From: Caldilineaceae bacterium
GTDB lineage: Bacteria; Chloroflexota; Anaerolineae; Caldilineales; Caldilineaceae
DNA: 64,000 bases
Direction: 5' to 3'
Assembly (NCBI GenBank): GCA_019637685.1
Contig: JAHBVF010000015.1
Location: forward strand, 7,875 to 71,874
Every line of letters starts with the position of its first letter. Positions within the stretch are counted from its first letter, which is position 1. Below, piece by piece: positions 17,921-48,355 of the stretch. The notes beneath the pieces are model-generated. The model saw only the letters and a list, made by a program, of their open reading frames with translations. It was not told where the DNA came from and made no database searches. A program made the translations under genes and the position numbers.

Positions 17921-18156
17921 GCCGTTATCAGACTGGCAAAAGCCGTCATCACCAATCGCAAACGGGGGAGGGGGCGAAGAGCTACAGGTTGGAAGGGTCT
18001 GGTGATTTGTTGAGGCTACTGAGAACAGAGAATGATCCACGAAGCCACACGAAGTTGCACGAAGAATTTCGCGGAGTGTCACGCATTCAGCGCCAGTATG
18101 TGTGTCCACCTACGGCAGGGCGGACTTCTCGCCATATCAAAGTTGTGGCTCCCTCT

Positions 18157-18210
18157 GGGGCATTATTTCACTCTGTATAATGTAAATTATACAGAGTGAA
18201 ATAATGCCCC
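18157..18210. other. 23-bp perfect-stem palindrome GGGGCATTATTTCACTCTGTATA-loop-TATACAGAGTGAAATAATGCCCC
   Basis: Read directly. Sits in an ~800-bp AT-richer intergenic region ~300 nt upstream of the histidine phosphatase gene. No flanking T-tract. Confidence 0.5.
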
Positions 18211-18506
18211 AGACCCCGGTCCTGGGAATGCAGCCCCAATCCCTGCCCCCTGCTGCGCGCTGACCGATTTTTCGGCTGTAACCGAAGCGTGCAGATCATT
18301 GGCGACCAGCACAAGGATTGTGTGGCGAAAATCCAAGCTGCACCGGCTGTGCCACGAAGAATCTGCTGCCCAGTCGCAGCCCCAGCACCAATCTCCCGGC
18401 TTTTCCAGGCAACTTACCACCTGTCCCATTTGGCCCTCTCCCCTGCTTTCGGGTAGTCTATACTCCGGTTGAATCATCCATCCACCAACCGCAAGGAGCC
18501 AATGAA

Positions 18507-20008: not shown

Positions 20009-20067
20009 ACTGGAATATAACGGACACAGCGAAGGAAAAGGTGGCGACGCTTCACCTTTTCCTTCGC
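20009..20067. terminator. 25-bp perfect-stem hairpin (AACGGACACAGCGAAGGAAAAGGTG / CACCTTTTCCTTCGCTGTGTCCGTT) after thrH
   Basis: Read directly. 9-nt loop. Begins 14 nt after the thrH stop. Confidence 0.55.
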
Positions 20068-20241
20068 TGTGTCCGTTGGAATGGCTATTTGCGCTAAAGC
20101 TGCTGTGCCAATTGTGTGCCGCCTATCTTGAAAGAAACCCTCCTTCTGTGCTACGGTATTGGAAGCTATTATGTTGGGGCTGGGAAGTTAAGCTGATTTT
20201 TATTTTGTAGAATACTCTTGCCTAAGGTGCAGTAAGGTGCA

Positions 20242-27844: not shown

Positions 27845-28003
27845 GGGGTGCTCCGCATTCGGTGGTCAAATCGGTTGTGTCAAGTTGGTTGTGCCAAGTC
27901 GTATAGCTTACGTTAGCACAGCTACTGGTGGCTTCCAAACGGGCATTTGCGCGTGTTCACCCCGCCGTTTGCACCACAGTTTACATCGCCATTTACACCA
28001 CAG

Positions 28004-28116
28004 GCGACACGACCGGCTGACACCGATAGCAGTGAAAATCATCCACAGATAGCACAGATTTTCACAGGTTGAATCCGTGTTCCCTTTTATCCGTGTATAC
28101 AACCCTATTTTCAGAA
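28004..28116. repeat. ~105-nt conserved 5'-leader element, copy 1 (upstream of glgP)
   Basis: CGACACGACCGGCTGACACCGATAGCAGTGAAAATCATCCACAGAT...GAATCCGTGTTCCCTTTTATCCGTGTATACAACCCTATTTTCAGAACAG. >90% identical to 45803-45904. Confidence 0.65.
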
Positions 28117-28231
28117 CAGTTCACACCATCCAATACGGGAAAAGTTGGCGTGATCGTGCCTTGTCGAGTACAATCGACAAGAGATTGCCATGCAACCGGT
28201 TGCCCGAATGCGCCTACAGGGAGAAAACTTT

Positions 28232-30784
28232 ATGAATATTCTGGGACACATTGCTGTCTTTCCCAAATTGCCGGCCGCCATCGCCCGGCTGCACGATCTG
28301 GCCTTCAATCTTTGGTGGAGTTGGAACCCCGCGGCCCAGAGTCTCTTCTCGTCCCTGGACGAAGAACTGTGGCGGGCGGTCAACCAAAACCCGGTCAAAT
28401 TTCTGCGCAGCGCGTCCCAGGAACTGTTGGACCAGGCGGCTGAAGATCAGGCGTGGCTGACCCGCTTTGCCGCGGTGATGGATGATTTTGACGCGTATAT
28501 GCACCCCCAGGCCAACACCTGGTATCGACGCACCCACGGCGAAAGCGAGCCAGCCACCATCGCCTATTTCAGCGCGGAGTTTGGCCTGCACGAAGCCCTG
28601 CCCATCTACAGCGGTGGCCTGGGCATTCTGAGCGGCGATCACTGCAAAGAGGCCAGCGATTTGGGGCTGCCCTTTGTCGGCGTGGGCTTTCTCTATCCCC
28701 AGGGCTACTTCACCCAGCGCATTCCTGCCAACGGCCAGCAGGAAGCCATCTACGAAAAGATCGACTTTTCCGAAGTCCCTGCCACCCCGGCCCTGGACCC
28801 CAGTGGCAAACCGGTGTTGATCCACGTGGACCTGCCTGGGCGCACGGTCTATGCGAAAGTGTGGCGGATTCAGGTGGGGCGCGTTCCCCTCTATCTGATG
28901 GACACGGATGTGGAGCGCAACGCGCCCCAGGACCGGGAGCTGAGTGCCCGGCTCTATGGCGGCGACAACGAAATGCGCATCAGCCAGGAATTTATGCTGG
29001 GCATCGGCGGCGTGCGTCTCCTGCGCGCCCTGGGGCTGAACCCGTCGGTCTGGCATATGAACGAAGGCCACTCGGCCTTTCTCAACCTGGAGCGTATTCG
29101 GGAGCTGGTTGAACAGGGCATCCCCTTTGACACGGGCGTAGAAACCGTGCGCGCGGGCAGCATCTTCACCACCCACACACCTGTCCCCGCGGGCCACGAC
29201 GCTTTTGCCTTTGAGCTGATGGAGAAATTCTTCTGGCAATTCTGGGGGCGATTGGGCATCGACCGGGAGCGTTTTCTCGACTTGGCCCGGCACGAACAGA
29301 GCTGGGGTCCCCAGTTCAGTATGACAGTGCTGGCCTTCCGCCTGAGTGCCTATCACAACGGGGTGAGCGAACTCCACGGCCACGTGAGCCGGGAGATGTG
29401 GAAAGAGATGTGGCCGGGCACACCTGTGGAGCAGGTCCCCATCACCCACATCACCAACGGCGTACACACGGGCACGTGGCTGGCTGACGAACTGCGGGAC
29501 CTCTACAATCGCTATTTGCAGAGCGACTGGCTGGAAGAGGTGGACGACCCCGCCACCTGGGAGGGGTTGGCTTCGGTGCCGGATGCAGAACTGTGGGCTG
29601 TACACAACCAGCGCAAGGCCAAAATGGTGGACTTTGTGCGGGATCGGGTGTCCCGACAATTTGTGCGCCACGGCGAAGGCCCTCGACGGCTGGCCCAGGC
29701 CCACAGATTGCTGGACCCCAACGCGCTCACCCTGGGCTTTGCCCGGCGCTTTGCCACCTACAAACGGGCCACCCTCATCTTTCGGGATATGGAACGGCTC
29801 AAGCGTCTTCTCACCGACCCGGAACGGCCTGTGCAGATCGTCTTTGCCGGCAAGGCCCATCCCAAAGATGAGCCAGGCAAGGCCCTGATCCAGCGCATCT
29901 ATGAAGTGAGCCAGGACCCGGAACTGATCGGGAAGATCGTTTTCGTGGAAAATTACGATATGAATGTGGCCCGCCACCTGATCGCGGGGGTGGATGTCTG
30001 GCTCAACACGCCCCGCCGCCCCTACGAGGCCAGCGGAACCAGTGGGCAGAAGGCGGCCCTGAGCGGTGCGCCCAATTTCAGCATTCTGGACGGCTGGTGG
30101 CGGGAAGGCTACGACGGCACAAACGGCTGGGCCATTGGCGAGGAGCGGGAGTATAAGGACACGGAGACCCAGGACGAAGCCGACGCGCTGAGTTTCTATG
30201 CCACAATGGAGGATGTGATCGTTCCCCTCTTCTATGACAGGGGAGCGGATGGGATTCCCGGCGGCTGGCTCACGCCCATGCGCCGCTCGATTGTCACCTG
30301 CGGCCCCGGGTTTTCCATGCGCCGTATGGTGAAGGAATACACCGAGCGTCTCTATTTGCCCGCCCTGGGCACGGGCCGCGCGGCCTCTGCCAATGAATAC
30401 GCCGAGGCCCGCGCCCTGGCCGAATGGAAGCGCCACGTGCGGGACAGCTGGTTCAGCGTCAATTTGCAATCCGTGGAGGGTGTGCCATCCCAGGCCCAGG
30501 TGGGCGACGCGCTCACCCTCAGCGCCCGGCTCTGGCCGGGGCGTCTTTCCGCCGACGATCTGGCTGTAGAAATTGTGGTGGGGAGTGATGGGGGCAGCGA
30601 CTTTACGGATGCACCGACCGTTATCCCCATGCAGGCGGGCGAGCGCCACGGGGATGGCAGCCTTGACTTCGTGGGCGATCTTTCGCCCCGCGAAAGCGGA
30701 CGGCTGGCCGTGGGCATTCGCGTGCGCCCCCAGCACCCGGGAATGGTACACCCCCACGAGACGGGGCTGGCGCGCTGGGTGTAG
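28232..30784 (+). CDS. glgP: alpha-glucan (glycogen/maltodextrin) phosphorylase, GT35
   Basis: Start MNILGHIAVFPKLP with AGGGAG RBS. Motifs FSAEFGLHEALPIYSGGLG, MNEGHSAF, and a PLP-binding region. 850 aa. Opposite-strand 847-aa ORF is a shadow. Confidence 0.9.
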   Translation: MNILGHIAVFPKLPAAIARLHDLAFNLWWSWNPAAQSLFSSLDEELWRAVNQNPVKFLRSASQELLDQAAEDQAWLTRFAAVMDDFDAYMHPQANTWYRRTHGESEPATIAYFSAEFGLHEALPIYSGGLGILSGDHCKEASDLGLPFVGVGFLYPQGYFTQRIPANGQQEAIYEKIDFSEVPATPALDPSGKPVLIHVDLPGRTVYAKVWRIQVGRVPLYLMDTDVERNAPQDRELSARLYGGDNEMRISQEFMLGIGGVRLLRALGLNPSVWHMNEGHSAFLNLERIRELVEQGIPFDTGVETVRAGSIFTTHTPVPAGHDAFAFELMEKFFWQFWGRLGIDRERFLDLARHEQSWGPQFSMTVLAFRLSAYHNGVSELHGHVSREMWKEMWPGTPVEQVPITHITNGVHTGTWLADELRDLYNRYLQSDWLEEVDDPATWEGLASVPDAELWAVHNQRKAKMVDFVRDRVSRQFVRHGEGPRRLAQAHRLLDPNALTLGFARRFATYKRATLIFRDMERLKRLLTDPERPVQIVFAGKAHPKDEPGKALIQRIYEVSQDPELIGKIVFVENYDMNVARHLIAGVDVWLNTPRRPYEASGTSGQKAALSGAPNFSILDGWWREGYDGTNGWAIGEEREYKDTETQDEADALSFYATMEDVIVPLFYDRGADGIPGGWLTPMRRSIVTCGPGFSMRRMVKEYTERLYLPALGTGRAASANEYAEARALAEWKRHVRDSWFSVNLQSVEGVPSQAQVGDALTLSARLWPGRLSADDLAVEIVVGSDGGSDFTDAPTVIPMQAGERHGDGSLDFVGDLSPRESGRLAVGIRVRPQHPGMVHPHETGLARWV

Positions 30785-33594: not shown

Positions 33595-33960
33595 TATACG
33601 GTTGAAACCGCACAATCACCCGGAAACCGGAGGCTGACGGCGTGCCCACCAATCGTGCGGCTGCAAGCCGCACCTACGCATTCCCCCTACCGCACCCCAA
33701 AGACCTTCATCACCTCATCCCCCAAATGATTGATCACCTTCACCGCGATGCGCCTAAAGGCAGGCATCTGTAGGTGCGGTTTCCAACCGCACAATCACCC
33801 GGAAACCGGAGGCTGACGGCGTGCCCACCAATCGTGCGGCTTGCAGCCGCACCTACGCATTCCCCCTACCGCACCCCAAAGACCTTCATCACCTCATCCC
33901 CCAGATGATTGATCACCTTCACCGCAATGCGCCCGGAAGTGGGCTTGTCGAAGGGCCGGG
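33595..33960. repeat. tandem ~180-bp duplication comprising a REP doublet plus the last ~25 codons of mod
   Basis: Unit TTCCAACCGCACAATCACCCGGAAACCGGAGGCTGACGGCGTGCCCACCAATCGTGCGGCTGCAAGCCGCACCTACGCATTCCCCCTACCGCACCCCAAAGACCTTCATCACCTCATCCCCCA(A/G)ATGATTGATCACCTTCACCGC present twice (33602-33770 and 33782-33950). The second copy is the real mod 3' end. Confidence 0.75.
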
Positions 33961-36597: not shown

Positions 36598-37236
36598 TTG
36601 GTAGGTGCGGTTTTCAACCGCACATTTTCGATTGCCCCGTCAATATACGGGAATCGATTATCGTAGGTGCGGTTTGCAACCGCACGTTTTCGGAATGTCC
36701 CACATTGTGCGGGTTACGGATGGTGTGTGTGCGATTTGTAACCACAGATTCTTCGTCGTTCCCGCATTGTGCGGCTGCAAGCCGCACCTACGAATTGGAC
36801 GGTTGCCTTTTGTAGGTGCGGTTTGCAAAACCGCACATTTTCGGAATGTCCCACATCGTGCGGGTTACGAATGTTGTGTGTGCGATTTGTAACCGCACAT
36901 TCTTCGTCGTCCCCGCATCGTGCGGCTGCAAGCCGCACCTACGGGTTGGACGGTTGCCTTTGGTAGGTGCGGTTTGCAACCGCACATTTTCGGAATGTCC
37001 CACATCGGGCGGGTTACGGATGGTGTGTGTGCGATTTGTAACCGCACATTCTTCGCCATCCCCACATTGTGCGGCTGCAAGCCGCACCTACGGATTGGAC
37101 GGTTGCCTTTGGTAGGTGCGGTTTGCAACCGCACATTTTCGGAATGCCCCACATCGTGCGGGTTACGGATGATGTGTGTGCGATTTGTAACCGCACATTC
37201 TTCGTCATCCCCACATTGTGCGGCTGCAAGCCGCGC
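36598..37236. repeat. REP array L: ~4 tandem copies of a ~153-bp composite unit containing GTAG-type REP palindromes
   Basis: Unit GGTTGCCTTTGGTAGGTGCGGTTTGCAACCGCACATTTTCGGAATGTCCCACATCGTGCGGGTTACGGATGGTGTGTGTGCGATTTGTAACCGCACATTCTTCGTCGTCCCCGCATTGTGCGGCTGCAAGCCGCACCTACGGGTTGGAC repeated with few substitutions. Each unit has three hairpins. Ends at the RAYT stop. Confidence 0.85.
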
Positions 37237-37770
37237 CTACGGGTTGTCATCTTCGCTTTCTTGCCAATCGTATTCTGTGATGGATTCCGGCAATGCCCAT
37301 CCCCAGCCGTCGGGGTAGGCATTACGTTCCCGCCAGTGGTGGTAGCTGGAATGGGGCCAATCTTCCGGTCTGGCAACCAACCCGTGGTGCACCGGATTGT
37401 AATGGATGTAGTCCAGGTGGCGCTGAAAGTCGATTTCGTCCCGGATGATGTGGTCCCAGAATCCCTTTTGCCAGAAGTGCATTGGCCCAGAAGTTCCGAT
37501 TCGTTTTTTATACTCTTTGGTGAAATTCGGCTTGAGCGAATGCATAATATCGCTAAAATTGCTATCACCGGTGGGACGGATTAGCAGATGAAAGTGTTCG
37601 TGCAGAAAGACGTATCCCTGGGTGACAAAGGGGTGAAGCTCCTTCACATTGCCCAATATCTCACGCAAGAGGTCAAGATGCGTCTCTTCCCGAAAGACCG
37701 GGACACGGCGATCGACCACCTGCGTGATGAAGATGATTGCGTTGGGTACGTAATAACGTCGGATGTTCAT
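37237..37770 (-). CDS. REP-associated tyrosine transposase (RAYT; IS200/IS605-like Y1 HUH transposase)
   Basis: 177 aa. HUH motif HEHFHLLI and catalytic Tyr region FQRHLDYIHYNPVHHGLV. Flanked on both sides by REP arrays. Confidence 0.85.
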   Translation of the reverse strand: MNIRRYYVPNAIIFITQVVDRRVPVFREETHLDLLREILGNVKELHPFVTQGYVFLHEHFHLLIRPTGDSNFSDIMHSLKPNFTKEYKKRIGTSGPMHFWQKGFWDHIIRDEIDFQRHLDYIHYNPVHHGLVARPEDWPHSSYHHWRERNAYPDGWGWALPESITEYDWQESEDDNP

Positions 37771-37774
37771 ATTT

Positions 37775-38188
37775 TCCCGTGGGTGCGGTTTTCAACCGCA
37801 TAATTGTTGGCGTATCCATCATTTCCCAGGATTCGATACCTGTGCGGCTGCAAACCGCATCTACAATTTGAGATGTTGTGGGTACGGTTTTCAACCGCAC
37901 AATCGTCGGCGTTTCCTTCATTTGCCAGGACTCGGTACCGTTTTGTAGGTGCGGTTTTCAACCGCACAATCGTCGGCGTTTCCTTCATTTGCCGGGATTC
38001 GATACCTGTGCGGCTGCAAGCCGCACCTACAATTTGAGATGTTGTGGGTGCGGTTTTCAACCGCACAATCGTCGGCGTTTCCTTCATTTTCCGGGATTCG
38101 ATGCCTGTGCGGCTTGCAGCCGCACAATTGTCGGCCTTCCCGCCACCTACCGGAATTCGATACCTGTGCGGCTGCAAGCCGCACCTAC
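37775..38188. repeat. REP array R: ~3.5 tandem copies of a ~117-bp unit with REP doublets; last REP overlaps the res stop codon
   Basis: Unit TGTGGGTGCGGTTTTCAACCGCACAATCGTCGGCGTTTCCTTCATTTGCCGGGATTCGATACCTGTGCGGCTGCAAGCCGCACCTACAATTTGAGATGT. The final GCACCTAC provides the TAG stop of res. Confidence 0.85.
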
Positions 38189-41100
38189 AAAATGGCCGCT
38201 TCAATCAACTTGTTGAAATCCGCCTCAATCTCAAAGACGGCTTTGAACTCGGCAAACTGCCAGCGGCCCAGTGTGCCCAAATTGTTCACCCCCGGTACCC
38301 AATAGCTCTTCATCGTGTTGGACTTGTCCTTCACATCCTCGCCCCGAAAGCCCTTGATTTCCACCACCAGATTGAGCAGGTCAGCCCGCCCGTCGTCGAT
38401 CTGCACGATAAAGTCCGGGATATATGTGCGTTTGGTCGAGCCGTAGAGGTAGGGCACTTCCAGCCCCAAGCCCTGGTTCTTCACATAGGCCCGCACACGG
38501 GGATGGGCCTCGGCCACCCGGCAGAACTCGGATTCCCAGTCGCTGTCACAGACCACCCAGTTGATGTGGCAGTGCTGGGGAGATGTCTTCCAGCGGGTCT
38601 CTTTGGAGGTGTTGAAGTTGACGTGGATGGTGGAGCCGGTGGGGTTATAGGCGTCCAGAATCGCTTTGATGGGCCGGTCGTCGGCCATGGATTCGGTGAT
38701 GGCGGCGGCGATACGCTCACAGGCCATATCCCCTATCTCTCGGTAGATCAGTTGGGCCGGATACGTGCCACCGGTACAGCGCAGATAGCCCCCTTCCAAC
38801 CACTGCTGGGCAATGCGCTTCAACTGGCCGAAGAGATGCAGCTTGGGTTCTTCGCCCGGATCACGGAATTTGCTGTAGAGCAGATGCTTGGCCAGATGGT
38901 AGAGCAGCGTGGACTGGCGCATCCCTTCCAGATGCTTCACATTCAGGTCGATCCCTTCGCCGATAATGCCCTCGTTGCGGGTCACCGAAGGGCCGACCAG
39001 CAGCGGCGTCAACTCCAGCACAGAATCTGGGCCAAAGGTGGCCGTGAGCTTCTCTGCCGGCAGCTCCACCCGATAGCCCTCCACCCGGGGAAATTGAATC
39101 TCCAAAGCGTCCCGCTCTGGTCGCACAGCCATCACCTGCACGGTCTGTTTGGGTGGTTTGGGGGCCACCACCACTGGCTTGGCCGTGAAGTCAAAGGGGA
39201 TGCCGAAGACATCCGCATACTCCACATTGAACAGCCCCTCCTCGTTCAATTCGTAGGATTGGCGGCGCAGGGCGCGGCCCACCACCTGCTCGCACAGCAG
39301 TTGTGTACCAAAGGCCCGCACCCCCAGCACGTGGGTCACGGTGTTGCAGTCCCAGCCCTCGGTCAGCATGGAAACCGAGACCACACAGCGCACAGATTCG
39401 CCCAGCCGCCCTTCCTTGCCTACGGTATTCATCACCTCCCGCAGCAACTCCTGGTCGCTAATGTTCTGGCCGTCGGCCTGGTTGCCGCTGCGCTCCACAA
39501 TCTCCCGGCGAAAGCGTTCGATTTCGTCCGCCGCCATCTCCCGAAAATCGTTGTCCAGAGCGTCGCCGGACTCAAGCTGTTCGCTGTCGATGAGCAGGGT
39601 ATTGGGCCGGGCCAGCCGGTTGCCCCCTTCGTCGTAGTTGCGGAAGAGGGGCAGCCGTCCTGCATTGTAGGCTTCCGTCTCCCCATCTTCCCCCAGCCGT
39701 TGAAAGCCGGAGATATAGTCGTAGACCAGCTTGGAGGTGGAGGTGTTGTTGCAGACCACAATAAAGACCGGCGGCGTCCCAATCCCAGCCCCCTGCCAGA
39801 GATCGAATATCTTCTCGTAGTGGCCGTAGAGGGCATCCAGCGCGGTCTGAAGCTCGGCGGGCAAAGCCAGCGGGTCCAGATTCTTGCTGGCCTTGCCCCG
39901 CCCCTTCTTGGGCATCTTCTTGCCGATATGCTCCCATAGGTTGCGGAATTTGGGCATATCCCCGCCGGGGATATTGTCGGCCACAGGCACACGGGGCAGC
40001 TTGACAATCCCACACTCGATGGCGTCCATCAGGGAGAAGTCGCTGGCTGCCCAGGGAAAGAGGGTGCCTTCGGCATAGCCGGAGCCGCGCAGGAAGAAAG
40101 GCGTGGCCGAGAGGTCATAGACCTTCTGCACCCCCAGCTTGCGCTTGACCACTTCCAGCCCGGAAATCCACAACCGGGCGGCCTCGTTGGCCTTCTGGGC
40201 CTCCTTGCGGTCGTCCCCCTTCAAATCCTCAAAATCTTCGTTGTCCGGTTTCTCCCGGTAGCAGTGGTGGGCTTCGTCGTTGAGCACCAGCACATTCTTC
40301 ATGCCCATCAGTTCCGGCATCACCCGCTGGATCATTTGGCCTTCGCTCTCCAATGTCTGCAACTCCGGCCCTCGCCCTTGCAGAAATTCCCGGCTGGTCT
40401 TGGAGAGGCTCAGACGTTCGCGCAGTTTGAAGGAATGGTAGTTGGTGATGACGATTTTGGCCCGGTCCAGATCGCCCAGCATATCGCCGGGCACCAGCTC
40501 CCGGCTGCGGTAGTAGCTGTCCGGGTCGTTGGGGTGCAGCACCCGCAGGCGGTCCCGAATGGTGATACCCGGCGTCACAATCAGAAAGCCCCGGGTAAAG
40601 GCGCGGCTGCGGGGATGGCGCACCGCGTTGATGGTCTGCCAGGCAATCAGCATGGCCATCACTGTCGTCTTGCCTGCACCCGTAGCCAGCTTCAGCGCAA
40701 TCCGCAACAACTCCGGGTTGGCCTGTTCGCTGGCCCCCTGGAGCAGGTCCAGAGTTTCCTTGCCCTGGGCCGAATTGGGTGCGACCTCCGCCAGCCAGAT
40801 GGCCGTCTCCACCGCCTCCACCTGGCAGAAGAAGGGGCGAATGCCCTGAAAGGGATAGCTGCGCCAGTGTTGCAGCAGTCGCTGGGTCTCCGGCGTCACC
40901 CCCCACTTGCCGGGGTCGGGAATCTGCCGCCAGCGGTCCACCTGGGCGCGGATGGCGTTGATGTTGCCGGTGGTGTCGTATTGCTGCTCGTCCGTGGAGA
41001 TGCCCTCTTCTTCCCCCAGCACCAGGGCCAACTGTTGATCCTTCGACTTGCGCCGCTTCTTGGGCTTGGGCACAGGGGTCACAAACTTGGCCGTGCGCCG

Positions 41101-41238: not shown

Positions 41239-41464
41239 CGATTTGGGCAGCCAGCGAACTGGTGATTATGTGTTCCTATCCTCGTCTTTGACTTCTAAGG
41301 TATCGATCCAACTCGGTTCTGTTTCCATTTCGTTATGTCACTTGGGGGGGCTCAAGCGCTGATTGCAGACCGAGCAGCGTTAGCCACGCTTTCGATTTAT
41401 CCCTGCGTAAGTCTAGCATAGAGTACTTGCCTGGACAATTGATTGCATGCAGCGTCGGAACCCC

Positions 41465-41762
41465 TGCACAAGCACCAGTCATCGCTGCACAACTACTCGT
41501 CATCATTGCACAAGCACCGGTCATCGCTGCACAAACACTCATCACCCCTGCACAGCCATCCACCATCACCGCGCAACTACTCGTCATCACTGCACAGCCA
41601 CCCATCATCGCCGCGCAAGCACTCATCATTGCCGCGCAAGCAGCAGTCACCAGCGCACAAACACTCGTCATCACTGCACAGCCACCCATCATCGCCGCGC
41701 AAGCACTCATCATTGCCGCGCAAGCAGCAGTCACCAGCGCACAAACACTCGTCATCACCACA
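41465..41762. repeat. 14-copy tandem repeat with 21-nt period (GCACAAnCACTCGTCATCnnn); all frames open
   Basis: Minus-strand frame gives heptads xxMxxCA (VMTSVCA LVTAACA AMMSACA AMMGGCA ...). Plus-strand frames give His/Cys-rich (CTSTSHR CTTTRHH ...) or xxIxAQx heptads. Units are not identical (substitutions between copies). Confidence 0.8.
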
Positions 41763-41821
41763 CAGACCCCGATTCCTAACCAGCCCTTTTCTTGGAGATT
41801 AAAGAATTGATCGGGCAATAG

Positions 41822-41891
41822 CGTAGGTGTGGCTTGTAGCCACACGTCTCTGGGCATCCCTTATCTGTGCGGCTTCAAGCCGCGCCTACCC
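41822..41891. repeat. REP doublet (GTAGGTGTGGCTTGTAGCCACAC ... GTGCGGCTTCAAGCCGCGCCTAC)
   Basis: Same GTAG-type palindromes as the RAYT-flanking arrays, ~580 nt upstream of res. Confidence 0.7.
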
Positions 41892-44053: not shown

Positions 44054-45535
44054 ATGACAGCCATCTGGTGGATTCGCCGGGACTTGCGCCTGGCTGATAA
44101 CAGGGCGCTGACCGAAGCTGTGCGGCAGGCGGACGCGGCAAAGGCCGGGGTGATTCCTCTCTTTGTCCTCGATCCGGTCCTGTTGGACTCGGTTTATGTG
44201 GGCCAAAAGCGGATCGATTTTCTGGTGGGTGGTCTGGCTTCACTACACGAAAGTTTGTTGCAGCGAGGCAGCCGCCTGGTTGTGCGCCGGGGCGACCCCT
44301 TGGCCGTGCTCCAGCAGGTGATGGCCGAGAGCGGCGCCACCGCCATCTATGCCCAGGCCGACCACTCGCCCTATGCCGTCCAGCGCGACGCCCGGATCAG
44401 CGCGGCTTTGCCCCTGCACCTGGTGGCCGGTGTGACCGCGCTGCTGCCGGGCACGGTTGCAAAAGCGGATGGCACGCCCTATACAGTCTTCACCCCATTC
44501 AAAAAGCGCTGGCTGCCCCTGTCCCCGGCAAGCCGGGAGCCGCTCTTGCCCAGCCCGGCGCGCCTCTCCACACCCGAATCCATTGCCAGCGAAGTTCTGC
44601 CTTCGCTGGCTGACACCCCGTCCTTCCCCCCTGGCGAAGAGGCGGCCTGGGCGCGCTTGACGGCTTTTACCCAGGGGGCGGACGTGTCTATCTTTGACTA
44701 CGCGAATACCAGGAATCGGCCCGATTGGGACGACACCTCCCGGCTCTCTCCCTATCTGCGCCTGGGGATGCTCTCCCCCCGCCAGGCATTGGTGGCCGCG
44801 CAGGCAGCCGGACAGCGGGCCGAGACACCGGCCCAGCGCGCCGGGGTGGAGATGTGGATTTCCGAGCTGATCTGGCGGGAGTTTTTTGTCTCGATTCTGC
44901 ATCATTTTCCCGGTGTGCGGCGGGCCAGCTTTCGCCCGGACTATGCGGAGATTGACTGGCGCAACGACCGGGACGAATTTGCGGCCTGGTGTACGGGGCG
45001 CACGGGCTATCCTTTTGTGGACGCGGCCCTGCGCCAGTTGACCACCACCGGCTGGATGCACAATCGGGCGCGGATGGTGGTAGCCTCCTTTCTGGTCAAG
45101 CACCTGCTCATCGACTGGCGCTGGGGCGAGCGCTTCTTTATGCAGCATCTGCTGGACGGGGACCCCGCGGCCAATAACGGGGGCTGGCAGTGGGTGGCGG
45201 GCACTGGCACCGACGCCGCTCCATATTTTCGGGTCTTCAACCCAATCACCCAGAGCCGCAAGTTCGATCCCGACGGCGTCTACATCCGGCGCTGGGTTCC
45301 CGAACTGGCGGACGTGCCCACACCCGCCATCCACACGCCCTGGAAGATGTCGGCCAGCGAGCAGGCACGGGCGGACTGTCATACCGGCACAGATTATCCC
45401 AACCCGCTTGTGGAGCACGCCTTCGCCCGCCAGCGGGCCTTGGAAACGTATAAGGCCGCACTGAACAGAACCAGAGCAACGCAGAGTCACAGGGGCGCGG
45501 ATTTACGCAGAGAAACGCAGATGAAATCCGTGTGA
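44054..45535 (+). CDS. phrB: deoxyribodipyrimidine photolyase (cryptochrome/photolyase family)
   Basis: N-terminal [20 protein letters not shown]-terminal FAD-binding region [33 protein letters not shown]...[16 protein letters not shown]. Confidence 0.9.
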
Positions 45536-45600
45536 ATCCGTCCCATCCGCGTTTATCCGTGTTCATCAGTGGCTTAAAAGGCTTTTTGTAGTAAAGTCAT

Positions 45601-45762
45601 CGTGACTATTCAGGCCAGCGCCGGTTGAGTAGGCCACGGTAGTATGTGGCCGTATCGAAACCAAAGCGGGTAGACCCGCAAACTGGTTTCGTTACGCCTG
45701 GAAACAGCCCCAGGCTACTCAACCGACGTTTGCTAACCGGCTGGCTTATGGCTGAATAGTCA
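45601..45762. mobile_element. MITE-like element: ~162 bp, imperfect ~40-bp terminal inverted repeats (GTGACTATTCAGG... / ...CTGAATAGTCAC) flanked by direct AAGTCATC
   Basis: Left end TAAAGTCATC|GTGACTATTCAGGCCAGCGCCGGTTGAGTAGGCC. Right end GGCTACTCAACCG...CCGGCTGGCTTATGGCTGAATAGTCAC|AAGTCATCC. Internal nested hairpins CGAAACCAAAGCGGGTAGACCCGCAAACTGGTTTCG and GCCTGGAAACAGCCCCAGGC. Confidence 0.6.
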
Positions 45763-45802
45763 CAAGTCATCCATGCATATCAGTATCTATTTATACATCA
45801 GT

Positions 45803-45904
45803 CGACACGACCGACTGACACCGATAGCAGTGAAAATCATCCACAGATTCTCACAGATTGAATCCGTGTTCCCTTTTATCCGTGTATACAACCCTATTTT
45901 CAGA
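45803..45904. repeat. ~105-nt conserved 5'-leader element, copy 2 (ends 15 nt before membrane-protein start codon)
   Basis: >90% identical to 28004-28116. A degenerate third relative (GAAATCCGTGTGAATCCGTCCCATCCGCGTTTATCCGTGTT) overlaps the photolyase stop at 45505-45560. Confidence 0.65.
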
Positions 45905-45919
45905 GCAGGAGTCCATTCC

Positions 45920-46969
45920 ATGAGCGTCACAAGTGCAAGTGAGTCCAGCCTGCCCAGCACCCGCGCAGAGGGCAAACTGCCGCGCAAAGATGTGCTGGCC
46001 CTGTGGGGTGGCATTATCTTCAGCACCCTTTTTACCGGCCTGATCTGGCTGGTGGGTGGACGGCTGGACGCGGTTCAACTGTTGCCCGATGCAGGGGCCA
46101 GTTGGTATTTGTGGAAGTTGCCCGAACCCACCTTCTGGAGTCGGGCCACAGCCTGGGGCTTCTATCTGGCCCATCAGGTTACCCTCTGGGGGCTTATTTA
46201 CTACGCGCAGAAGAACAAGACAAAATACACCACCGGTCTGCACCGGGTGAACCTGTGGGCGCTGGCCGCCAACGCCTCCTTCATCACCCTCCGTCTGGTC
46301 CAAACCCACGTCTGGTACGACGGTCTGGCCCAGGATGTCTCCATTTGGAGCAGCCAGGTGTCGGTGATTATTCTGCTGGTCTGGGTGCTGGTGATGGAGA
46401 ATCAGCGCCGCGGGCTTTTCTTTGGCAAGCCAGCCCCCTTCTCCAAAGAAGTGGTGCGCTTTGCCCGCACCTATCACGGCTACTATTTCGCCTGGGCGAC
46501 TATCTACACCTTTTGGTATCACCCCACCATCGCCACAAGCGGGCATCTCATCGGCTTCTTTTATATGTTCCTGCTGATGTTACAGGGCAGCCTCTTCTTC
46601 ACTCGCATCCACACCAACCGCTGGTGGACACTGGTGCAGGAATTCACTGTGCTGATCCACGGCACACTGGTGGCGGTGATGCAGGGCAACGGCATCTGGC
46701 CGATGTTTGCGTTTGGCTTTGCCGGTCTCTTTATCATCACCCAAATGCACGGGATCGGGCTTTCCCTGCGCAGCCGCATCGGATTGATCGGGGTCTTTGC
46801 GGCCAGTGTGATTTGGGTATACAGCGAGCGGGGCTGGGCACAGATCAATGAGATTATCCGTATTCCCGCCATCGATTACCTGGCCGTCTTTGCCCTGGCG
46901 GGTATCTTCTGGCTGGGGCTGGCCGTGGCCCGGCGTTTTCAGCCCGCCCCGGTGAGCGGGTCTCAGTGA
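45920..46969 (+). CDS. hypothetical polytopic membrane protein
   Basis: Start MSVTSASE after AGGAG RBS. ~8 TM helices; Trp/Tyr-rich. The track ORF start at 45773 lies inside the repeat and is rejected. Confidence 0.55.
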   Translation: MSVTSASESSLPSTRAEGKLPRKDVLALWGGIIFSTLFTGLIWLVGGRLDAVQLLPDAGASWYLWKLPEPTFWSRATAWGFYLAHQVTLWGLIYYAQKNKTKYTTGLHRVNLWALAANASFITLRLVQTHVWYDGLAQDVSIWSSQVSVIILLVWVLVMENQRRGLFFGKPAPFSKEVVRFARTYHGYYFAWATIYTFWYHPTIATSGHLIGFFYMFLLMLQGSLFFTRIHTNRWWTLVQEFTVLIHGTLVAVMQGNGIWPMFAFGFAGLFIITQMHGIGLSLRSRIGLIGVFAASVIWVYSERGWAQINEIIRIPAIDYLAVFALAGIFWLGLAVARRFQPAPVSGSQ

Positions 46970-48117: not shown

Positions 48118-48355
48118 ATCCAGGACAAACTGTAGTGATCAGGCTGATAGTGAAAGAAGCTGGACGCTGATTCACACGGAAGGACGCAGATTTTTTCTCC
48201 GGATCAGCGTCTATCTGCGTGAATCAGCGTCCCATTTTTTGTTCCACAGCCTTCGCGCAGGCCGATCGACCAATCCATTGGCTGGCCGGGCAACGTTACT
48301 TTGGATATACCCTGCTGCCGTGCACACCGTTCAGCCCAGCCCCCCTCAAAAGGAG

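Follow-up and report, generated by a model that had tools for sequence, protein, structure and literature searches.

Two copies of one element in the window

The DNA analysed here is a 64,000-nt stretch of contig JAHBVF010000015.1 (GCA_019637685.1, positions 7,875 to 71,874) from a Caldilineaceae bacterium, hereafter called the window. It contains two closely similar non-coding elements, both on the plus strand and in direct orientation, one upstream of glgP (copy A) and one upstream of a membrane-protein gene (copy B). A first-pass annotation, which had put their identity above 90%, read them either as a shared cis-regulatory unit or as a small mobile repeat. Alignment of 28004–28119 with 45803–45908 gives 102 matches, 4 mismatches and one indel, corresponding to 96% identity without gaps and 88% when the 10 gap columns are counted. 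The near-identity had therefore been recognised correctly, with the amendment that homology reaches approximately 15 nt farther in the 5′ direction. The full units span 27989–28119 (131 nt) and 45787–45908 (122 nt), are 93% identical without gaps, and differ by a 9-nt indel that is exactly one CACAGATAG-type unit of a short tandem array. The 34-mer core TTGAATCCGTGTTCCCTTTTATCCGTGTATACAA is the same in both copies, with 0 matches expected from shuffled sequences. The window has 8 occurrences of the motif ATCCGTGT, where 1.4 would be expected, and the copies are AT-rich, with a GC content of 43–46% versus 60% for the window.

The aligned copies of this element, including those from other genomes, share a modular order: a 15-nt terminal module (T), a module designated L, one to five tandem 9-nt units, the 34-nt core and a second T module. 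In copy A the 5′ terminal direct repeat (27989–28003, plus strand, CCATTTACACCACAG) is degenerate, resembles the T2 variant and marks the point where the homology between the copies begins. It is followed on the same strand by the L module GCGACACGACCGGCTGACACCGATAGCAGTGAAAAT (28004–28039), which contains two GACAC motifs and is conserved in 19 long-form copies, by three tandem 9-nt units (CCACAGATA, GCACAGATT and TTCACAGGT; 28040–28068), by the core (28069–28102) and by the 3′ T module CTATTTTCAGAACAG (28105–28119). The core is the invariant module throughout the family. It consists of ATCCGTGT-N8-ATCCGTGT, then the palindrome GTATAC, and ends in TGTATACAA; the two halves of the direct repeat are thus spaced 16 nt start to start, and not separated by the 12 nt previously described. 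The alignment between the copies places the corresponding plus-strand modules of copy B at 45787–45801 (degenerate 5′ terminal repeat, CTATTTATACATCAG), 45802–45837 (L module), 45838–45857 (two tandem 9–10-nt CACAGATT units, one fewer than in copy A), 45858–45891 (core, identical to that of copy A) and 45894–45908 (3′ T module, CTATTTTCAGAGCAG).

The 5′ extension of both copies is a degenerate version of their 3′-terminal 15-mer; in other genomes, long-form copies likewise have this 15-mer module ahead of the L module. The T module follows the consensus CTATTTTCAG(A/G)(A/G)CAG or the variant CTATTTACACATCAG (T2); the L module follows GCGACACGACCGGCTGACACCGATAnnGATGAAAAT. The tandem units, which number 1–5 in other copies, read (A/T)CGCAGATT in Litorilinea and in the Caldilineaceae genome CHL15. 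Units reading CACAGAT characterise the subfamily of the window, which is also found at loci elsewhere (L002, L076, L089 and L144).

Copy B ends at 45908, with a gap of 11 nt to the ATG at 45920, and its last bases together with the flank form CAGGAG, which straddles the junction 8 nt before this ATG. Copy A, by contrast, ends 112 nt before the ATG of glgP at 28232, with a conserved promoter in between. Both start positions come from a codon-usage gene model, and Pfam supports the genes in the window. The description of both copies as lying directly before start codons consequently applies to copy B only. The extended −10-like motif that had been noted in both copies is present as TGTATACAA, but a scan for the sigma-70 consensus (−35/−10) found no promoter-like site inside either of them. 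A terminator scan returned nothing at copy A or copy B, and on both strands both copies fold no better than shuffled sequences (z-scores −0.4 to −1.4). Two further candidate signals were rejected. A resemblance to a DnaA box (TCATCCACA in the window copies, TTATCCACA in L002) was discarded, since other copies do not preserve it and carry AGGAACGCA at this position. A CsrA-like ACACGGAU on the opposite strand was treated as a lead only and rejected; this motif is base-paired in the hairpin form described below.

A Chloroflexota repeat family with hairpin and singlet forms

A scan with the exact pattern GAATCCGTGT-N8-ATCCGTGTA, using one genome per species, identified 27 loci, of which 24 (25 matches) reside in five Chloroflexota metagenome-assembled genomes (MAGs). 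Caldilineaceae CHL15 contributes 11 loci, Anaerolineae Co_bin.203 contributes 6, Litorilinea aerophila TH-08apr19-264 contributes 5, and Litorilinea aerophila ZH-03apr19-129 and Chloroflexi NC_groundwater_1080 contribute 1 each. The remaining three loci, matched by chance or through simple repeats, are unrelated and were set aside. A second pattern, unconstrained in the first half of the core, was applied to metagenome contigs and matched at least 120 loci with at least 166 core occurrences. The same pattern gave no match in viral contigs, and plasmids gave none either. These patterns impose part of the apparent conservation of the core. Since the element forms a multi-copy family in several genomes, we can exclude the possibility, raised in the first-pass annotation, that only two copies exist and arose by local duplication. 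Rfam contains no match to the element at the gathering threshold or at a permissive E≤1; a hit to Mu-gpT-DE (18.5 bits, 28159–28192) lies outside the element and is a chance match. Literature searches found no description of this repeat family.

The commonest arrangement among the relatives of the window copies is an inverted doublet, in which two cores face each other head to head across a loop of 3–20 nt and the outer ends read TTGTATAC...GTATACAA. This statement and the element counts that follow refer to the matches listed by the searches. After removal of duplicates there are 54 doublets and 96 singlets, some of the latter being truncated elements or elements with a diverged partner. The consensus of 43 distinct doublets is a 29-bp helix, which makes the doublet a near-perfect hairpin of 65–70 nt. 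Folding of four doublets gave energies between −36 and −59 kcal/mol and z-scores between −9 and −16. Conserved tails, one of them T-rich, flank the hairpin.

Variation in the stem is confined to the 6–7 nt that separate the two ATCCGTGT repeats, where the arms covary, as in AAAATGG/CCATTTT and TTGAAG/CTTCAA. Of the cells compared between the arms 95% are paired, as against 28–56% when the partner is slid along, and double changes occur in 50 cells against 27 ± 5 in shuffles, with none of 500 shuffles reaching as high. The invariance of the other stem positions carries no weight, since it is partly imposed by the search patterns.

The singlet form, to which both window copies belong, appears to be laid out like the doublet. 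In our reading its L module is a diverged reverse-complemented core plus tail and aligns with the reverse complement of the second tail and arm of the doublet. Inspection of the aligned sequences by eye suggests that the two GACAC motifs of the L module face two GTGT motifs, and that the inner half of the doublet's left arm, GGAACACGGATT, is similar to the 9-nt units. Pairing between the L module and the core is nevertheless weak: the consensus of the 19 long-form copies forms 15 pairs with 0 compensatory changes and −6.4 kcal/mol. A T module could be recognised after 57 of 194 core occurrences. Several loci carry tandem arrays or nested mosaics (L006, L054, L129, L138, L056, L146 and L061), and in the arrays at L006, L054, L129 and L138 neighbouring units share a T module. 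The element thus constitutes a clade-restricted, multi-copy, modular intergenic repeat with a covarying hairpin doublet and a non-folding singlet. Many metagenome and MAG contigs start or stop inside a doublet (for example L043, L053, L064, L067 and L103), a behaviour typical of repeats, which indicates that the family fragments the assemblies of these organisms.

Gene context, competing readings and origin

The control region of glgP lies downstream of copy A and outside the repeat. A promoter scan located TTGGCG-N18-TACAAT on the plus strand at 28145–28174. This promoter is followed, on the same strand, by the conserved sequence ATGCAACCGGTTGCC (28190–28204) with its perfect 12-nt palindrome GCAACCGGTTGC. 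Promoter and ATGCAACCGGTTGCC are the sole upstream blocks conserved at the glgP loci of Co_bin.203 (L029, 85% amino acid identity) and Litorilinea ZH (L031, 83%); the control region common to the three lineages reads TTGGC(G/A)-N17/18-(AG)TACAAT, then ATGCAACCGGTTGCC. This palindrome may serve as an operator or form a stem-loop at the 5′ end of the transcript. The repeat is absent before glgP in L029 and in L031/L033. Since the glgP promoter lies downstream of copy A and is kept in these repeat-free relatives, copy A is not part of the glgP leader. The gene upstream of glgP encodes G6PD in the L029 and L031 loci versus a divergent PTPS-related membrane protein in the window, and copy A sits at a synteny breakpoint upstream of the promoter that belongs to glgP. 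Among the three lineages, the window alone has an 8-bp inverted repeat, CTTGTCGA/TCGACAAG (28160–28181), on either side of the −10 element of glgP.

At the second site, the closest comparison is L035, which has the same synteny (photolyase, membrane protein, UbiA, DLH), encodes a membrane protein with 80% amino acid identity, and has a 65-nt spacer without the element. The element is also absent before the membrane-protein gene in L034 and L036. The corresponding spacer of the window measures 384 nt and contains an array of short units (45515–45562), an element with terminal inverted repeats (45592–45763) and copy B. Given their absence from both orthologous sites, we read copies A and B as lineage-specific insertions. 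This comparison, together with the multi-copy distribution over several genomes, bears out the small mobile repeat among the earlier suggestions. It does not extend to a shared promoter and operator or to a promoter-carrying repeat: neither copy contains a sigma-70 consensus, and glgP keeps its own conserved promoter. The element with terminal inverted repeats is about 170 nt long, reads GTGACTATTCAG...CTGAATAGTCAC with 50-nt arms that are approximately 70% complementary, and is missing from L035. The L035 spacer (1448–1513) holds CCATTTACCTGTCAT, a 10/15 match to the T2 module (estimated p ~0.04), a weak hint that T-like sequence may pre-exist at unoccupied sites or remain in them.

Almost all copies are intergenic, a called gene enclosing just 2 of the 150 unique elements. 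Of the singlet cores, 49 point toward the start of a gene on the same strand and 38 into the 3′ end of a convergent one; the window-type subfamily splits 17:13. Where the neighbouring genes are co-directional, both orientations are found (30 versus 21). The end of the core is typically 7–60 nt from the next gene boundary, be it a start or a stop. An orientation bias of 17:8, which emerged from gene calls based on GC3 only, vanished once the codon model was used and the number of copies was six times larger. The near-random orientation is what the first-pass annotation had itself named as grounds for a purely selfish repeat, and with it the dedicated-promoter and leader readings fail. We also rejected a promoter-plus-ribosome-binding-site (RBS) cassette, since an RBS or start codon directly follows no more than about 7 of 57 T modules. 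Doublets for which two neighbouring genes were called (n = 31) lie in 23 tandem, 7 convergent and 1 divergent spacers, whereas the background of gaps of at least 100 nt comprises 287 tandem, 48 convergent and 59 divergent cases. The depletion in divergent spacers (p ~0.04 by a rough binomial calculation done by hand) fits selection against insertion at divergent promoters and a terminator or stabiliser role alike.

Could the element nevertheless act on the genes beside it? A mobile promoter cassette would have the core as an outward promoter, built either on the extended −10-like TGTATACA or on an ECF-sigma-like (extracytoplasmic function) TGAATC-N16-CGTGTA, that spreads by driving downstream genes and supplies the membrane-protein gene through copy B. 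The spacing of TGAATC-N16-CGTGTA is, we presume, like that of ECF-type promoters, and CGTGTA is followed almost invariably by TATACA, also in places that the search pattern left free. In about half of the same-strand cases the end of the core lies 14–60 nt from a start codon, and copy B, which replaced or expanded a native spacer of 65 nt, abuts an RBS. We still regard this reading as unlikely, because the orientation of the cores is not different from random, with 38 of them facing a convergent gene at its 3′ end, and because an RBS or start so rarely adjoins a T module. The sigma-70 scan is empty inside both copies, the base at −7 is not conserved, many variants lack TGAATC (AAAATCT, TGATCC), and the promoter conserved for glgP lies downstream of copy A. 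It is less probable still that ATCCGTGT-N8-ATCCGTGT is bound by a transcription factor whose regulon includes, besides other genes, glgP and the membrane-protein gene. Direct repeats at fixed spacing, strong sequence conservation and the presence of two copies before plus-strand genes in one window would suit such an operator; but the downstream genes have no common theme (translations read by eye include a response-regulator-like start, ABC-transporter-like and MFS-like proteins and others), the element is missing before orthologous genes, and the copies occur in both orientations, many of them after gene 3′ ends. Perfect palindromes of 60–70 nt and tandem arrays are also unlike operators.

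Two other alternatives place the function in RNA. The doublet, a very stable hairpin with covarying arms that includes G-U pairs at variable stem positions, might be transcribed as a terminator or as a 3′-end or intercistronic mRNA stabiliser comparable to the hairpins formed by REP (repetitive extragenic palindromic) sequences and by bacterial interspersed mosaic elements (BIMEs), with the window copies as weakened versions. A gene 3′ end does adjoin 30 of the 31 doublets that have two called neighbours, and one tail carries the T-run GCCTTTTTTCAGGG. This T-run, however, is one-sided and 3 nt off the stem, the doublets have no consistent orientation to transcription, and the covariation fits a hairpin in single-stranded DNA or arm-to-arm copying equally well. 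As the window copies themselves show neither a significant fold on either strand nor a terminator, we hold this reading to be slightly less probable than the promoter cassette. Least credible of all is a structured cis-regulatory leader RNA of the riboswitch type, or a small RNA gene. More than 100 nt of near-identical non-coding DNA, and the place of copy B in the 5′ region of a gene, would suit a leader RNA. This reading is contradicted by the empty Rfam search, the insignificant folds, the weak consensus structure without a single compensatory pair among 19 singlet copies, the variable number of 9-nt units within the element, and the random orientation.

The most probable reading, which we favour with reasonable confidence, assigns both stretches to the singlet subfamily of a modular, non-coding and lineage-restricted repeat that is interspersed in Caldilineaceae genomes. 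The replicating entity would probably be the doublet hairpin of two inverted 34-nt cores, in single-stranded DNA or in RNA. In the form found in the window, the L module may be what decay has left of the left arm, with slippage-prone tandem 9-nt units taking over part of that arm, which would account for the fact that these copies no longer fold. That the window type derives from the hairpin form, and not the reverse, is a direction of evolution that we infer. The hairpin form may spread by means of an enzyme acting in trans that recognises the hairpin, its arms or the inverted repeat in single- or double-stranded DNA, and also through tandem duplication or through recombination at the 15-nt terminal repeats. 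Arrays would grow and shrink as T modules recombine and the 9-nt units slip. Entry into both intergenic regions would have been independent of the regulation of the neighbouring genes, copy B being one of three repeats that presumably expanded the photolyase/membrane-gene spacer from 65 to 384 nt. The singlets in the window are probably largely immobile and mostly passive, with at most incidental effects on their neighbours.

Several observations weigh against this reading. A motif screen of 806 predicted proteins from approximately 0.8 Mb of repeat loci for a mobilising Y1 transposase gave only the transposase of the window described in the next section. No consistent short target-site duplication is visible at the ends of doublets, and the empty sites, at 80–85% amino acid identity, are too diverged to define boundaries. 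The highly conserved core also occurs in singlets that lack a pairing partner; although this conservation is partly imposed by the search patterns, the hairpin model does not explain it, and protein binding or promoter function is therefore kept at low probability. Several copies, copy B included, lie 14–60 nt before start codons, where they would cut the gene off from an upstream promoter. The gene calls derive from our own codon-usage model, which reproduces the Pfam-supported genes of the window but is not a validated gene finder, and a few loci that are near-duplicates of each other (L025/L044 and L010/L037) entered the orientation counts. Finally, the genome of the window was outside the scanned set, and exact look-ups of its GlgP protein, from two candidate starts, and of the membrane protein gave no match. 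The only contig that matches it is L028 (5.2 kb; GCA_049663425.1, a Caldilineaceae MAG), which is identical to 27845–28250 of the window, copy A included.

A repeat of this kind has well-known counterparts. REP sequences are defined by a conserved GTAG or CGTC tag at one end (Di Nocera et al. 2013, PMC3733652), and REPINs are inverted REP doublets that form a hairpin with compensatory changes between the arms (Bertels & Rainey 2011, PMC3116915). The Caldilineaceae element resembles REPINs in that it is short, extragenic and multi-copy, and in that its main unit is an inverted doublet hairpin, in single-stranded DNA or mRNA, with compensatory changes in the arms. Its tandem clusters take in flanking sequence, its copy number varies widely among related genomes, and its singlets look like decayed doublets, which parallels the relation of REP singlets to REPINs (PMC3116915). 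The doublet arrangement is found in the 54 doublets among the matches listed, and not in the window copies, which are singlets. The differences from REP sequences are equally clear. The core contains a direct repeat and is palindromic only over the 6-nt GTATAC, instead of being an imperfect palindrome of 20–40 bp; neither the core nor the conserved tails contain GTAG or CGTC; and the stem measures 29 bp versus 5–13 bp in REP. The singlet, in addition, is a conserved architecture with extra modules that amplifies in tandem.

The BIMEs of enterobacteria combine a palindromic unit with several short conserved motifs in mosaic order and number, and lie in intergenic or intercistronic DNA in either orientation. 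The element shares this mosaic build and this placement, but its sequence is unrelated, its host belongs to another phylum, and its blocks are 8–10-nt ACRCNGAT/ATCYGTGT units in place of the Y and Z units of REP. Miniature inverted-repeat transposable elements (MITEs) in some cases carry promoters, as do the Correia elements of Neisseria. Like MITEs, the element is non-coding, 100–150 nt long, intergenic and multi-copy, has terminal inverted repeats in its doublet form, and in some copies lies directly before a start codon, where it could change expression. Unlike MITEs, its full-length units are bounded by 15-nt direct repeats, and no orientation bias points to promoter function. The doublet is essentially two inverted arms of 30 nt, whereas the window copies have a degenerate left arm and direct repeats as their outermost modules. 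No parent insertion sequence with matching ends was found in approximately 0.8 Mb of repeat loci, in which the ends of the IS256-family transposase element at L061 were not compared systematically. In sum, the element works like REPINs, BIMEs and MITEs, yet it is not a REP: it is a REPIN/BIME/MITE-like interspersed repeat that is new as a family for this lineage and of a general kind already known.

A bolder version would make the ATCCGTGT core family an unrecognised class of hairpin mobile elements in Chloroflexota, separate from REPs with a GTAG or CGTC tag and with its own mobilising or binding protein that reads the phased ATCCGTGT repeats. The singlets of the window would then be second-generation derivatives that amplify without a hairpin and could supply neighbouring genes, the membrane-protein gene for one, with signals for transcription. 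We give this extension a small chance. For annotation, the conservation before glgP and the membrane-protein gene should not be recorded as a shared regulatory signal; the real conserved control region of glgP is the TTGGCG-N18-TACAAT promoter with the GCAACCGGTTGC palindrome. The repeat family marks lineage-specific intergenic expansion and synteny breakpoints, and it breaks up MAG assemblies.

A RAYT locus and other repeats nearby

The window also encodes a Y1 transposase that resembles REP-associated tyrosine transposases (RAYTs). This RAYT-like protein of 177 residues is encoded on the minus strand at 37237–37770, matches PF01797 (E = 3.5e-8) and contains the motifs HFHLL and YIHYNPV. Its gene is flanked on both sides by inverted-doublet arrays of a GTAG-tagged palindrome, (T)GTAGGTGCGGTTTGCAACCGCAC (36600–38195), which also occurs at 33606–33933 and 41827–41889. 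The region 36600–38195 is thus a classical REP/REPIN-RAYT locus whose sequence is unrelated to the ATCCGTGT element, and the flanking of the RAYT by this other repeat is a further difference between our core and REP. A second hairpin-repeat system beside a classical REP-RAYT in one genome offers a case for studying the coexistence of repeats and mobilisation without a GTAG tag.

Degenerate relatives of the element had been proposed near 45505–45560 and 48150–48235. Both places do have an 8–10-nt unit in common with it, but nothing beyond that unit. The first is an array of 9–10-nt units (45515–45562) that gives a weak nhmmer match (E = 0.009). The second is a hairpin with 30-nt inverted arms followed by a T-run (48162–48232); it lies 45 nt after the menA stop, is terminator-like and is probably the menA terminator. 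The unit types at these two sites are GGACGCWGAT, ACGCAGAT and ATCCGTGT. Elsewhere, unit hairpins are nested in or located beside the core (L061 480–700, L016 and L005).

Genes located between two cores (L106, L114 and L149) were inspected. The one at L106 (5082–5972) codes for a 253-residue PD-(D/E)XK protein (PF13366, E = 7e-34), and no transposase, between two outward-facing cores. It lies between ABC-transporter permease-like and ATPase-like genes and appears to be an insertion into an operon. A repeat scan of the window further recorded, at positions 41424–41773, 505–713, 18154–18213 and 20019–20077, an array of about 16 tandem 21-nt units, G-rich tandem repeats of 43 nt, and two inverted repeats without mismatches, one with arms of 28 nt around a 4-nt loop and the other with arms of 25 nt around a 9-nt loop.

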